DNA of 64,000 bases. Source: a virus. The notes beneath the pieces are model-generated. The model worked only from the letters and a program-made list of their open reading frames with translations, had not been told where the DNA came from and ran no database searches. Positions 36,840-42,973 of the stretch are shown here, one piece after another. Both the position numbers and the translations under genes were made by a program. The first letter of the stretch is position 1, and each line of letters opens with the position of its first letter. The stretch lies in the IMG/VR virus record IMGVR_UViG_2529292698_000003. One strand, 5' to 3'.

Positions 36840-37406
36840 TTATTTTTTTAGTCCCTCTAGATATTTTATGACATCCTCTAAGGATTCTTCAGCTCTTTGT
36901 TTGTTTACACCACCAACCCATTTTTCTACTTCACCCGCTTCAGTTACATACCCTTGAGTACTTTCATTGAGATTAGTATGATAAAAATTTTTGTATTCTT
37001 CTATTAAGAGGTCAATTTCTTTATTGTAAGTATCTTTAAGATAATCTTCCCATTTACCTTCTAGTTTAAGTTTAGTTTCAAATTCCGCTCTACAATTAAC
37101 ACATTCACCATAAGATTTATAATAGTGAGGGTCTAACTGTCTATCCATAATTCCTTTACATTTAGGGCAAAATAAAGGGATTGTTGCTTTTTTAAACTTA
37201 TCTAATTTAGTAATATTTTCTTTAATACCGTCTTTAATAGTCCATGTTTTTCCTCCTTCTTCCCAAATATCCCCTTCTTCATGAAATTCAGATGATGATT
37301 TTGATTTACCAACTCCACTAATAGTTCTAGCACCAGATTTACCTTTTACAAGATTTCTAATACGTTGGATATCTCGTTCACCAAATTGTTTTTTTAATAT
37401 ACTCAT
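36840..37406 (-). CDS. Zn-finger hypothetical protein
   Basis: CPKC...CVNC; coupled to the polyprotein stop. Confidence 0.7.
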   Translation of the reverse strand: MSILKKQFGERDIQRIRNLVKGKSGARTISGVGKSKSSSEFHEEGDIWEEGGKTWTIKDGIKENITKLDKFKKATIPLFCPKCKGIMDRQLDPHYYKSYGECVNCRAEFETKLKLEGKWEDYLKDTYNKEIDLLIEEYKNFYHTNLNESTQGYVTEAGEVEKWVGGVNKQRAEESLEDVIKYLEGLKK

Positions 37407-40400: not shown

Positions 40401-42973
40401 TCTAATATATCTCCATACTCTTTAATATCAGATAAAATATATTCTTCTATATCTTTAGAAAAAGGGCTTACTTTCATATCTTCATCTTCTCTTAATCTTC
40501 CTAGTTTTATAGCGTAAGCATTTAAACCAAATGGATCTTTTTTCTTACCTTCTGTTAAAGTATCATATATATCTTTATCAACAACAAATATACTTTCGGG
40601 TGTAAAAGAATTACCTACATATAAAGTTTCTTTTTCATTATCTTTAGAATATTCCATATCTTTAGATAACTCACCCATATAATTAGGGTGTATAATAAAA
40701 TTTGGATTATCTAATGATATTTTTACATATCCTCCAACTCTATTTGGGGATTTTTTATAATCAACATATCCAGAATAATGTCCAAATCCTTTTGCTACTT
40801 CTTCATCTGTTGAAAAACTTAAAAATCCTCTTTTTCCTCTTGAATTAATTTTTAAATTAGTGGGAACTTCATATTCTGTTACTCCATTAGACTTAGATTT
40901 AATTTTTAATTTATTTATAAAATCCTTATCAAAAGTAGTTCCCCTATATCCAAATTTATTCCCACCAACTCTAGGGTCTAATTGTTTAGGATATTTACTT
41001 TTTATTTTAAGTAAGTCTTTTAACAAATTTATATTAATATCTGTATAATCCTCTATATAATTTTTAAGTTGATTTGTTAAGTTTGGATTATTTAAATTTT
41101 CTTCTAATTTATTACCTGTAATAGAATCGGCCCAGCTTCTAAACATTATATTTCCTGTCTCGTATGCTTCTCTTTCAATTTGATCTAAATGATCATCTTG
41201 ATTAACATCAGTATTTGCACCTAAACCAGTTAATCTATCTTCTAGATTTTGAATGTGATGAATCATTTCATGTGAAAATGAACGTACAATATCTTTTGGA
41301 TGTCTACCTTCAGTATAGAGGTAAATTATCATTGTATTGGGATCATAGTATGCTGTTTTTCCGAAGAAATTTTTAGCATTTTCTTTATCTCCATTATTGA
41401 ATATAACTTTAGGTAAAGGATCGATTTTATACCCTTTTTTTCTCATATAGTTAGTTAAATCAACTATTTTTTGTTTATAATCTATATTAGAAGAATAAGT
41501 AGCATTTTCGTTTAGTGATTCTTTACGTTTTAAAACTATAAATCTACCTTTACCTTGGGGGGAATAGAATTGAAGACTGGAGTCTTTTCTAAAATATCCT
41601 GGGATTAGGTTAAGGTTATTGGTTGTAAGTCTATTATATACTGTATGGTAGTTTTTATCTCCGCTATTATCTAATGAAGATATACCAATATAATCAGGTT
41701 GTTCTTTTTCTATAAAATCTACTATAATTTTATACATAGTAGATAAAATCTTTATATAATTTTCTTTTCCACCTTTTGGAATTGAGGTTACTTCACCTCT
41801 AGGAGTGAATTGGATATTGTAAAACAACCCTAAATCTTTATAAGGATTAGGTATATTTTTTATACTATATTCATATGTTATATCCCCTACTGTAAATGCA
41901 CCTCCAGTTAAATCTCCATTTATATTAACTGCATTTTCTTTAGATAAAGAGATTTCACTTATATTTTCAATAAGATGTTGTTGGATTGTTTTTGGTTGAT
42001 TAAATTTAGGAATATCTAAATAAAAAGATTCATTTAAAGGTTGAGTTAAATTTACTCCTGATAAGGTTTCTAAAATTTGTTGTTCTAAGAGTTGATCTTT
42101 AAATTTAGAAGGTAGGGTTGTAAATTTTCCTTTAGTTAATTTGTTAGTTAACCACCCTAATAAGACACTACCTGAAGCTCCTAGTACTGGGAAGGTTATT
42201 GCTATTCCACTAGTTTTGAGGATGTCAGTGAAATTTTGTTTAAGTTTATTTTTTTCTTCAGGGGTTAGGTCTTGTTTTTTAAGATATTTTATAACTAATG
42301 GCCTAAACCCTTTAAAATCTCCTTTTTGATCTTTAAAAGCTTTAGAAAAATTTGCACCTAATTCTTTTGCTTTACTTGCTACTTTCTTTAAAGCATTTTC
42401 TTGAATAACAGTTTGAACATATTCAAAGATAAGGTTTCTTTCTTCATCTGTTAATTCTTTAGGAAGGAATTGAAAGAATTGTTCTTTAGATACTTTAGCA
42501 GCTTCTCTAGCTTTAGTCCCACTAACTCCACCTGTTGTTGTTATGTTTTTTACTTCAACATGGTCTCCATATTTATCAAAAAATTCTTTTCTTTTAACAA
42601 AGTCTTGAGCATCTTCATCATTACCATCCCTAGAACCTATAAAGACCAGTGATTTATGGTCAGTATTTTCTTTAATATAATCTTTTACATATTTTAAAGG
42701 TGATGAATCAGCTTTAACTATTTCAACTTTATCTCCTAAGTATTTTTTATATATATTCCAAACTGAATAAGATTCATCTTGGGATATTCCATCTCTAATT
42801 CCACTACCAATTATAATATAAAACTTGTCTATATCAGGAAATTGTTCAAGAGATTTTTTAACTACAGCAAAATGTCCTTTTGTAGGAGGTTTAAACCCAC
42901 CCCCATAAAAAGCTGTTATATAGTTTTCTTGTTCTAGTAAACCAACTAATAAGGATTTTGCAAGCCTATTCAT
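37403..42973 (-). CDS. 1856-aa multi-enzyme polyprotein: HxGH nucleotidyltransferase, HEXXH domain, ADP-ribosyltransferase-like domain, Fe/Mn SOD, Zn ribbon, second HEXXH domain, HAD (NT5C-like) nucleotidase
   Basis: GGGFKPPTKGH (aa 24-34); HEMIH (568-572); YRG/FLSFST/NEKE (676-782); EHFDKH, GGGFYNH, FGSGW, DVWEHAYY (1210-1357); CDNC..CHKC (1443-1465); HELEH (1590-1594); DMDGV..IDD (1708-1823). Confidence 0.85.
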   Translation of the reverse strand: MNRLAKSLLVGLLEQENYITAFYGGGFKPPTKGHFAVVKKSLEQFPDIDKFYIIIGSGIRDGISQDESYSVWNIYKKYLGDKVEIVKADSSPLKYVKDYIKENTDHKSLVFIGSRDGNDEDAQDFVKRKEFFDKYGDHVEVKNITTTGGVSGTKAREAAKVSKEQFFQFLPKELTDEERNLIFEYVQTVIQENALKKVASKAKELGANFSKAFKDQKGDFKGFRPLVIKYLKKQDLTPEEKNKLKQNFTDILKTSGIAITFPVLGASGSVLLGWLTNKLTKGKFTTLPSKFKDQLLEQQILETLSGVNLTQPLNESFYLDIPKFNQPKTIQQHLIENISEISLSKENAVNINGDLTGGAFTVGDITYEYSIKNIPNPYKDLGLFYNIQFTPRGEVTSIPKGGKENYIKILSTMYKIIVDFIEKEQPDYIGISSLDNSGDKNYHTVYNRLTTNNLNLIPGYFRKDSSLQFYSPQGKGRFIVLKRKESLNENATYSSNIDYKQKIVDLTNYMRKKGYKIDPLPKVIFNNGDKENAKNFFGKTAYYDPNTMIIYLYTEGRHPKDIVRSFSHEMIHHIQNLEDRLTGLGANTDVNQDDHLDQIEREAYETGNIMFRSWADSITGNKLEENLNNPNLTNQLKNYIEDYTDININLLKDLLKIKSKYPKQLDPRVGGNKFGYRGTTFDKDFINKLKIKSKSNGVTEYEVPTNLKINSRGKRGFLSFSTDEEVAKGFGHYSGYVDYKKSPNRVGGYVKISLDNPNFIIHPNYMGELSKDMEYSKDNEKETLYVGNSFTPESIFVVDKDIYDTLTEGKKKDPFGLNAYAIKLGRLREDEDMKVSPFSKDIEEYILSDIKEYGDILEFKIDLEDVSQYSSDSNLWEFYDDINNVKVIVKLKPTIKNISEFKFYSLQDDNQLSFNKLKHYNPKVMNTIFKIFMDEVLPNNPKILIQPFDYLRYRLFRAMLNNNLDGNQYKIDTKDDPMGQSILLVQKLNEAKKPYKHKHGFDDKLGKDPFGLNQYARELAQSLEEVLFIAGKEVEKIENPTNNPEDAIVIYKDGTSEPYLDTIKEGRKKKKDPKKGTGKKPKGSGRRLYTDEDPKDTIGVSFRTKEDIVDTLNKKSFKAKSHARQSQIINLIHQRVRAAYQNAKDPDTKSRLKRGLDYIEKRKEASKEKTKRLKNITENIQNPDVKFKIPKLKYSYTSLQPYIDKETMEEHFDKHFKGYTDKLNTELDEKKIRVEAEDQIQAIQKILGKYSKNNIIKNNGGGFYNHVLYFENITPDYKSPSSKFRKMLEENFNSFSEFKDKFKEAGLKQFGSGWVFLIKKGNKLVIESYANQDNPYLDKDFKGEILIAMDVWEHAYYLKHKSQRGKYIDDFFRVIDYKVAEERLKEEKTLSENGQKIAKKNMNDYKKSNNPSGKVKDPFGLNQYARELAQGLEEAIVGDKIECDNCGWSWDIEDGGDDLYTCHKCWHDNTPKQLNEGRYDTLANKLSSTAFRVFKDTHDRGDKEGSFKFRIDHPEEEHDIPSKDFFFDFEGTVEITDSEYKVDGGANAGFDEDGDETTPLLSVTFKIPKNPTKNPSWEDISFDIKDVVRHELEHLTQDGENLKSGKYMKDDQLIRDLIDADLLSKFQYFKLEKEVDAMLQGLYFKAKKSKQPFKDIINNYLNIFISQEKITPEEKEEILDLWRRRRKALSLPIFENEKKVMDYKIFLDMDGVLVNFDEQFKELTGEYPKQYEQTHTPDEFWEAIDSAGVGFWRGMKWMPGGEALYNRAAKHDHVLLSSPSRSEVSKIGKRLWRRDKTPNTKLILSRSHLKKNYAAPNHILIDDRENNIQQWKDAGGIGILYKSADQVNAELDKLGL
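38672..40540 (-). repeat. Three intragenic copies of the KDPFGLN(Q/A)YA...L(E/R)E linker
   Basis: Copies at 40487-40540, 39899-39955 and 38672-38728; all begin AAAGATCCATTTGGTTTAAA on minus. Confidence 0.9.

Follow-up and report, generated by a model that had tools for sequence, protein, structure and literature searches.

A 64,000-nucleotide stretch of viral DNA (IMG/VR record IMGVR_UViG_2529292698_000003; hereafter the window) encodes what is probably a capsid-targeted cargo polyprotein, a chain of ~10 modules that would be cut at its joints by a gp21-type prohead protease. The window carries a series of minus-strand genes from a distant T4 relative, a T4-like myophage whose host is probably a marine flavobacterium. 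The polyprotein gene is a single unbroken open reading frame (ORF) of 1856 codons at 37403-42973; the initial annotation had reported this frame without giving a strand, and we place it on the minus strand; read from the plus strand, the same interval is riddled with stops. That annotation had also read the protein as a packaged precursor, a reading that sequence statistics and comparison with relatives support; packaging into the virion, cleavage and injection are inferred.

(L/I)xE sites lie at the joints and are avoided inside modules

In T4, gp21 cleaves after L/I-X-E, and Asp at P1 prevents cleavage (PMC9026906). All 15 sites of this type that the initial annotation had listed at module boundaries are present in the polyprotein (E14, E192, E336, E489, E625, E808, E829, E990, E1025, E1065, E1178, E1386, E1434, E1476 and E1695; modules are named as in Table 1). 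The whole polyprotein carries 29 [LI]xE motifs against ~21 expected from its composition, and because this total is unremarkable, it is the placement of the sites that decides. Among relatives of 25-60% identity, the joint Glu is conserved in 98% at E192, 99% at E489, 93% at E1025, 100% at E1476 and 91% at E1695; intradomain Glu sites are poorly kept, with E102 retained in 23% and E184 in 5%. The joints are variable at P1' (N, G, A, E, Q or V), and what is conserved is the P1 Glu together with a hydrophobic P3. In 109 of 117 representatives, for example, E stands before HEXXH-1, and P3 is L, I, V or M in 112 of 117, whichever module lies upstream.

Homology breakpoints gave a measure of site placement across the family. 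The ends of high-scoring segment pairs on the polyprotein cluster at residue 1177, and homology breakpoints along the polyprotein adjoin LxE sites. Of 583 breakpoints in 62 non-redundant proteins, 84% are no more than 6 residues from the Glu of an [LIVM]xE motif, versus 19% of random positions. Within 4 residues of a breakpoint, [LI]xE is enriched 5.2-fold, with control values of 0.6-fold for xD, 1.1-fold for xK, 1.0-fold for xN and 0.5-fold for [FYW]xE; in a second set of 113 representatives (no more than 50% identity), the enrichment of [LI]xE at joints was 4.2-fold, and control motifs were again not enriched. The control motif xQ likewise showed no excess at breakpoints. Module interiors contain 469 [LI]xE motifs against 761 expected, a ratio of 0.62 (0.70 in the second set), while [LI]xD, xK and xQ are enriched 1.2- to 1.6-fold in the same interiors and the [LI]xE ratio in other proteins of the same phage is 1.0-1.4. 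The enrichment at linkers relative to domain interiors that the initial annotation had proposed to test is borne out, and joint enrichment combined with interior avoidance is the outcome expected from selection by an (L/I)xE-specific protease.

Structure prediction drew the same boundaries. In AlphaFold2 models of residues 297-1065 (model A) and 1026-1856 (model B), low-confidence linkers contain or abut E489, E625, E990, E1065, E1178, E1386, E1434, E1476 and E1695, so that predicted linkers coincide with (L/I)xE sites.

Leaders, stand-alone modules and a gp21-type protease

T4 loads cargo into its head by means of a 10-residue capsid-targeting sequence (CTS), and large foreign enzymes placed on the T4 CTS, including a beta-galactosidase fusion, are packaged and delivered (PMC9026906). 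The polyprotein begins with a leader, MNRLAKSLLVGLLE, that appears to resemble the T4 CTS; among relatives, L4 is conserved in 95%, L8 in 100%, L13 in 96% and E14 in 68%.

Two of the modules are also found as stand-alone proteins, whose leaders of 5-29 residues place h-x-E (h, hydrophobic) exactly at the polyprotein junction residue. Stand-alone HEXXH-2 proteins occur in many phage contigs, and in all 74 of the 74 with a peptide upstream, P1 is E and P3 is L, I, F, M or V, ahead of G(R/A)YD; MKHLILE and MISLKHLFLE are among the leaders. Glu is missing altogether from some forms without a leader (MCGRYD, MGGRYD, MRGRYN). Because leaderless forms drop the Glu and leader-bearing forms keep it, the residue belongs to the joint and not to the HEXXH-2 domain. 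Stand-alone versions of the ADP-ribosyltransferase (ART)-like module start M(T)RLTLAQLIGE, a sequence that aligns with a polyprotein joint and resembles MNRLAKSLLVGLLE.

The window also encodes a suitable protease. The product of 18355..18963, named in the initial annotation as the cognate enzyme, scores 112 bits with Pfam PF03420 (Peptidase_S77; cut-off 27, E 3e-32) and shares 37% identity with T4 gp21 (E 3e-24), confirming it as a gp21-type protease. The capsid protein, the scaffold and the protease all carry N-terminal LxE sites in T4-like positions. The major capsid protein itself has a Pfam Gp23 match (E 6e-75) and matches 2582 phage records, including T4-likes and cyanophages, with Flavobacterium phage immuto at the top (59% identity).

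Cassettes turn over at the joints

More than 500 relatives of 1020-3248 residues, all metagenomic, carry modules in differing orders and combinations, and the core zincin HEXXH-1 alone matches at least 2059 clusters at 50% identity. Extra modules found in relatives include plastocyanin-like, methyltransferase, GNAT and, in one relative, ART-PolyVal. Among family members such as P0012, P0032, P0049, P0105, P0110 and P0122, some carry a plastocyanin/azurin-type copper-binding domain (PF00127); in others, a methyltransferase, GNAT, DUF6934 or DUF5661 domain replaces modules seen here.

Relative P0004, which is encoded on an independent ENA contig, is 97-99% identical to the polyprotein and lacks exactly the ART-like cassette, connector included. 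Its joint reads SLNE/NISPFSKD (a slash marks the joint), where the polyprotein reads KLEE/...RLRE/DEDMKVSPFSKD; the cassette was gained or lost exactly at the joints.

In a self-comparison of the polyprotein, the modules were not paralogous, and only connector repeats of ~30 residues were recovered. Their 19-residue core, KDPFGLNxYAxELAxxLEE, is present in three copies in the polyprotein and nowhere else in the window, and it is found in nearly all relatives between various pairs of modules, usually with LNE before it and the next module directly after it. Connector copies 2 and 3 are 93% identical in DNA over 58 nucleotides, and one 20-mer is identical in all three copies. Flanked by two sites, the conserved connector (KDPFGLNxYAxELAxGLEE) is probably a portable joint for cassette recombination, a role that fits because of the high DNA identity between copies; it is possibly also a docking or targeting element.

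Identities of the modules

Two of the module assignments in the initial annotation are firm. The Fe/Mn superoxide dismutase (SOD) matches PF00081 (66 bits) and PF02777 (102 bits), with 3tjt as the best PDB entry (E 2e-44), and its metal-ligand motifs EEHFDKH, FYNH and DVWEHAYY can be read in the sequence. The C-terminal HAD nucleotidase matches phrog_2643 (E 4e-23), carries a DMDGV motif and is modelled with the fold of 3bwv (Z 15.9, root-mean-square deviation (rmsd) 2.2, 138 residues aligned) and of human cdN (6g2n, Z 14.8). For the Zn ribbon, a CxxC...CxxC pattern is read directly from the sequence.

The N-terminal module keeps a putative assignment as an HxGH nucleotidyltransferase by motif and not by profile. 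It contains GGFKPPTKGH and SGTKAR, of which PTKGH and SGTKAR are at least 90% conserved in relatives, and its Pfam score is 13.1 bits against a cut-off of 21. The weak Pfam match, to CTP_transf_like, recurs in 3 of 35 relatives (best relative E 0.004), and the match to PPAT 1vlh has an E of 0.92. Single-sequence PDB searches with this module, HEXXH-1 and HEXXH-2 returned nothing significant.

Of the two metalloprotease-like modules, HEXXH-1 is the better defined, as H568, E569 and H572 are invariant in relatives and the model of residues 487-613 suggests, at the level of fold, a small zincin, upholding the earlier call of a HEXXH domain. The SPRTN protease domain comes nearest to it (6mdx; Z 7.5, rmsd 4.1 over 108 aligned residues), followed by PprI 8sln (Z 6.6), both with middling Z values, and the Pfam search gave no MPTase-PolyVal match. 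HEXXH-2 has the HExxH motif claimed for it (RHELEH) and could be given no family name: the single-sequence PDB search and alignment profile searches of PDB and Pfam returned no family, and an atlas look-up gave only leads below 0.9 (LPD23 and SprT-like).

The two modules that had been described as alpha/beta and of unknown type are indeed modelled as alpha/beta, and they may now be called GNAT-like at the level of fold. Many GNAT chains match the modelled regions, residues 337-486 and 863-989, with Z 6-8, and for module 1 the matches reach Z 6-7.5 across 110-120 aligned residues. No GNAT sequence-family match was found in the polyprotein, the likeness being one of fold, and Foldseek with the 769-residue model gave no match at E <= 0.001.

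The R-S-E motifs on which the ART-like assignment was based are conserved: in a 12-sequence alignment reaching down to 30% identity, Y-R-G and L-S-F are invariant, S-x-S and E-x-E are kept, and E780 and E782 are at least 90% conserved. No fold or family accompanies them, as alignment profile searches found no match in PDB or Pfam, the atlas look-up gave a single lead below 0.9 (DUF4765) and the model is poor; on its motifs, we call the module ART-like. The poorly modelled parts are this module in model A and the SOD in model B, probably because the alignments are thin or misaligned there.

The linker module that follows the nucleotidyltransferase contains a hydrophobic Gly/Ala-rich stretch, TSGIAITFPVLGASGSVLLGWLT (residues 254-276; 42146-42214, minus strand), with a Kyte-Doolittle value of 1.7 over 19 residues. 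Its hydrophobic character is conserved in ~50 relatives, and it may be a membrane-active segment.

Table 1 Features of the polyprotein and of related loci in the window (aa, amino acids; pLDDT, predicted local distance difference test)
Feature	Coordinates	Strand	Basis or remark
Whole polyprotein ORF (P0001)	37403..42973	(-)	1856 aa + stop, one uninterrupted frame
N-terminal leader, aa 1-14 (MNRLAKSLLVGLLE), T4 CTS-like, ends LLE	42932..42973	(-)	conserved in relatives
HxGH-type nucleotidyltransferase (NMNAT/PPAT-like), aa 15-192, ends IQE192	42398..42931	(-)	motifs; weak Pfam
Linker module, aa 193-336, sites E297, E302, E315, E336	41966..42397	(-)	hydrophobic Gly/Ala-rich stretch aa 254-276
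GNAT-like alpha/beta module 1, aa 337-489, ends LNE489	41507..41965	(-)	pLDDT 70-90
HEXXH-1 zincin-like module (HEMIHH), aa 490-625, ends LEE625	41099..41506	(-)	most conserved module of the family
ART-like cassette, aa 626-829: module, LTE808, connector copy 1 (KDPFGLNAYAIKLGRLRE829)	40487..41098	(-)	
GNAT-like alpha/beta module 2, aa 830-990, ends LNE990	40004..40486	(-)	pLDDT 70-87; Z 6-8
Connector copy 2, aa 991-1025 (...KDPFGLNQYARELAQSLEE)	39899..40003	(-)	
Small beta module, aa 1026-1065, ends IKE1065	39779..39898	(-)	model
Basic module, aa 1066-1178, Lys-rich disordered stretch and helical hairpin, ends ITE1178	39440..39778	(-)	
Fe/Mn superoxide dismutase, aa 1179-1386, ends LKE1386	38816..39439	(-)	Pfam, PDB
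Connector copy 3, aa 1387-1434 (...KDPFGLNQYARELAQGLEE)	38672..38815	(-)	
Zn ribbon, aa 1435-1476 (CDNC...CHKC), ends LNE1476	38546..38671	(-)	E1476, G1477 100% conserved
HEXXH-2 module (RHELEH), aa 1477-1695, ends IFE1695	37889..38545	(-)	matches no named family
HAD 5'(3')-deoxyribonucleotidase (NT5C), aa 1696-1856	37406..37888	(-)	PHROG, fold
Zeta-toxin/AAA_33-type kinase	43066..43869	(-)	leader MISLIQLLKE; first gene of polyprotein transcription unit
Promoter-like 10-mer ATATTTATAA (gene orientation)	43872..43881	(-)	precedes kinase-polyprotein unit
Prohead protease, gp21 orthologue, proposed processing enzyme	18355..18963	(-)	Peptidase_S77

Genomic setting and expression

The polyprotein gene is flanked by genes for a kinase, an exonuclease and a primase. 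An independent ENA contig (L004) has the order kinase, 35-aa ORF, polyprotein, 188-aa ORF, as here, at 97-99% identity; a look-up in the contig index returned no entry for the polyprotein in its exact form. The 35-aa ORF between kinase and polyprotein (MAKIIAVCGGGFKPPTSGHFEVIKTSLKQNHEIDE; 42966-43073, minus strand), a small gene that was also called on L004, is a repeat of the first strand and HxGH motif of the polyprotein's nucleotidyltransferase.

A recurring 10-mer, ATATTTATAA in gene orientation, is present in 17 copies in the window, all in a single orientation, against 2.25 expected (for example at 1227-1236, 2984-2993, 24094-24103, 36831-36840 and 43872-43881). It lies 4-25 nucleotides upstream of many genes, and the copy before the unit of kinase, 35-aa ORF and polyprotein sits directly after the exonuclease gene. 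We regard it as a candidate late-promoter element, and because the tail tube, sheath and portal genes have copies ahead of them too, its position suggests that the polyprotein unit may be co-expressed with virion genes. We considered the late promoter of T4 (TATAAATA when read in gene orientation) as the recurring motif and rejected it, as the recurring element reads ATATTTATAA.

Several other genes of the window deserve mention. Immediately upstream of the protease gene, a 550-aa ORF (18963-20615, minus strand) contains 16 [LI]xE sites and had no match in PHROG and Pfam searches; it is distinct from the portal, a separate gene at 22193-24076, and is possibly a prohead core or cargo protein. 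Immediately downstream of the major capsid gene comes one for a PhoH-like ATPase (14431-15129, minus strand; phrog_170, E 3e-65), which has the promoter-like motif ahead of it. Finally, the block at 26399-37406 (minus strand) holds small ORFs whose short leaders end in h-x-E (MDRLKKIIQE, MERLRKLIKE, MKKTRLLE), among them those at 29934-30563, 30815-31255, 31257-31730, 31732-32625 and 36285-36818, and three ORFs of the block share the N-terminus MDNFDL(R/K)K(F/Y)LTE. These small ORFs may be further capsid cargo.

A proposed route from prohead to host

We propose that the polyprotein is made alongside virion genes and that its T4 CTS-like leader would carry the chain into the prohead core. There, the gp21-type serine protease would cut after Glu in (L/I/V)-x-E at each joint, releasing ~10 proteins together with small connector peptides. 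The predicted products are the HxGH nucleotidyltransferase, two GNAT-like and two HExxH proteins, the ART-like protein, the basic module, the Fe/Mn SOD, the Zn ribbon and NT5C. Products retained in the head would then enter the host with the DNA and could act ahead of any phage gene expression.

Several points weigh against this proposal. The leader Glu, E14, is kept in only 68% of relatives, and over all ORFs of the window, N-terminal h-x-E leaders show no clear excess over chance. Replication genes (primase and exonuclease) adjoin the polyprotein gene, with the head genes ~19 kb off, and the joints of the homologue in phage immuto are less regular. The LNE ahead of HEXXH-1 could belong to that domain. 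To our knowledge, a cargo of 213 kDa exceeds every natural T4 internal protein. Because breakpoints in homologous proteins are not independent, the z-scores for joint enrichment are inflated, although its direction, its controls and its replication clearly hold despite this. Lastly, the chain could be processed by its own conserved zincin instead, an option that the initial annotation had left unconsidered.

This last alternative, in which HEXXH-1 (or HEXXH-2) would cut the chain before or after delivery and the prohead protease would have no role, seems to us unlikely, although it draws on real features of the protein: HEXXH-1 has an invariant H-E-x-x-H in every relative found, its modelled small zincin fold is nearest to the SPRTN and PprI proteases, and a release role is predicted for the metallopeptidases embedded in polyvalent proteins (PMC5512222). 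The fold match is, however, only middling (Z 7.5), and the motif found at the joints also ends the leaders of stand-alone modules that have no peptidase of their own and is found N-terminally in the capsid protein, scaffold and protease. Zincin specificity usually lies at P1', whereas P1' is variable here and the determinants at the joints, a P1 Glu and a hydrophobic P3, are those of the gp21 motif. A further idea is that of an uncleaved cytoplasmic multi-enzyme protein, acting for example in nucleotide or NAD metabolism, whose joints would be linker features or recombination scars. Such scars leave unexplained the interior depletion of [LI]xE (0.62-0.70) with xD, xK and xQ enriched, the Glu that is dropped in leaderless and always kept in leader-bearing stand-alone forms, and the absence of Asp substitution at joints (ratio 0.6). 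Fe/Mn SODs are normally free dimers or tetramers, and this usual free oligomeric state also speaks against an uncleaved chain. We therefore hold that idea to be improbable, even with the primase and exonuclease genes next door, with Fe/Mn SOD and NT5C being ordinary cytoplasmic enzymes, and with a connector DNA identity (93%, shared 20-mer) that is consistent with recombination joints.

An ORF so unusually long and heterogeneous might also be an assembly chimera or a read-through artefact, a concern raised in the initial annotation. We give this a negligible chance: a chimera is excluded because the independent ENA contig keeps the gene order at 97-99% identity and hundreds of relatives exist. 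The architecture recurs in more than 500 long proteins and 2059 representative clusters, and the cultured phage immuto has a syntenic 907-aa homologue.

Should the polyprotein prove to be packaged cargo cut by the prohead protease, a large uncharacterised family, with more than 500 long relatives and a core zincin that occurs in at least 2059 clusters at 50% identity, would represent modular delivery of pre-made enzymes, and the T4 rule of CTS plus gp21 would extend from single small cargo proteins to whole polyproteins. Polyvalent proteins would gain a concrete processing mechanism, and a sequence rule (h-x-E at joints, avoided inside) would predict virion cargo and its mature ends in uncultured phages. 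The natural connectors could be used for packaging foreign proteins in phage heads, and a new question would be what a phage gains by injecting a superoxide dismutase together with a nucleotidase and an NAD-type transferase. At a little under an even chance, we further suggest a plug-in cargo system in T4-like phages of marine Bacteroidota and their freshwater relatives, built from connector-based cassettes, one leader and the capsid protease. If so, it would be a phage counterpart of the RNA-virus polyprotein, but with processing by a head-maturation protease and evolution by cassette exchange, and even before the first phage transcript appeared, the host would have received SOD, a nucleotidase, metalloproteases, an NAD-synthesis-type transferase and ART-like and acetyltransferase-like proteins.

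Comparison with known systems

The processing that we propose has its model in the T4 internal proteins IPI, IPII, IPIII and Alt, which share with the polyprotein a gp21-family (S77) protease, the (L/I)-x-E motif, a short N-terminal leader that closes with this motif, and enzymes as cargo; Alt, for example, is an ART that undergoes processing in the prohead and is then injected (PMC9026906). The T4 proteins differ in being single modules trimmed at one or both ends, whereas the polyprotein has ~10 modules with a site at each joint, exchanges cassettes among relatives and has a repeated connector, and its packaging is inferred. The inner-body or ejection proteins of phiKZ, 201phi2-1 and SPN3US are also similar, as a diverged gp21 homologue cuts many of these head-internal proteins after Glu, commonly at several sites in one protein, and the cargo is ejected (PMC9026906). 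In contrast to the polyprotein, these are mostly cases of propeptide removal from separate proteins, and their P3 is S or A, giving (S/A)-x-E, in place of L or I.

Among cultured phages, Flavobacterium phage vB_FspM_immuto encodes a syntenic protein, gp088 ('NMNAT', 907 aa), located after primase and exonuclease. It shares the HxGH nucleotidyltransferase, HEXXH-1 and HEXXH-2 modules and has MAE before GRYD; it differs in being half the size, in having a Pol-beta-like N-terminal module and in lacking the SOD, the ART-like module and the DPFG connector. Its 5'-3' deoxyribonucleotidase is a separate gene, gp087, with a leader that ends LLLEE.

The published concept that comes closest, which the initial annotation had left unmentioned, is the class of polyvalent proteins (Iyer, Burroughs, Anand, de Souza and Aravind 2017, PMC5512222), which likewise combine many disparate enzymatic domains with a zincin-like metallopeptidase, show extreme domain mosaicism and are predicted to be delivered with DNA. 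On the published view, peptidases embedded in the polyvalent proteins would release them, and their typical contexts are MuF, portal or conjugation (PMC5512222), whereas the polyprotein has a prohead-protease motif at its joints that is avoided inside modules, and Pfam and PHROG searches detected no MuF or portal domain in it. The SOD, NT5C, HxGH nucleotidyltransferase and plastocyanin-like modules lie outside the described polyvalent repertoire, and a text search of PMC5512222 found SOD and NMNAT unmentioned. In the literature that we searched, we found no description of an enzyme chain combining a prohead-protease site at each joint, interior avoidance, standard connectors and cassette turnover. 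The mechanism that we propose would be of the T4 CTS and gp21 type, and the architecture is of the polyvalent kind.

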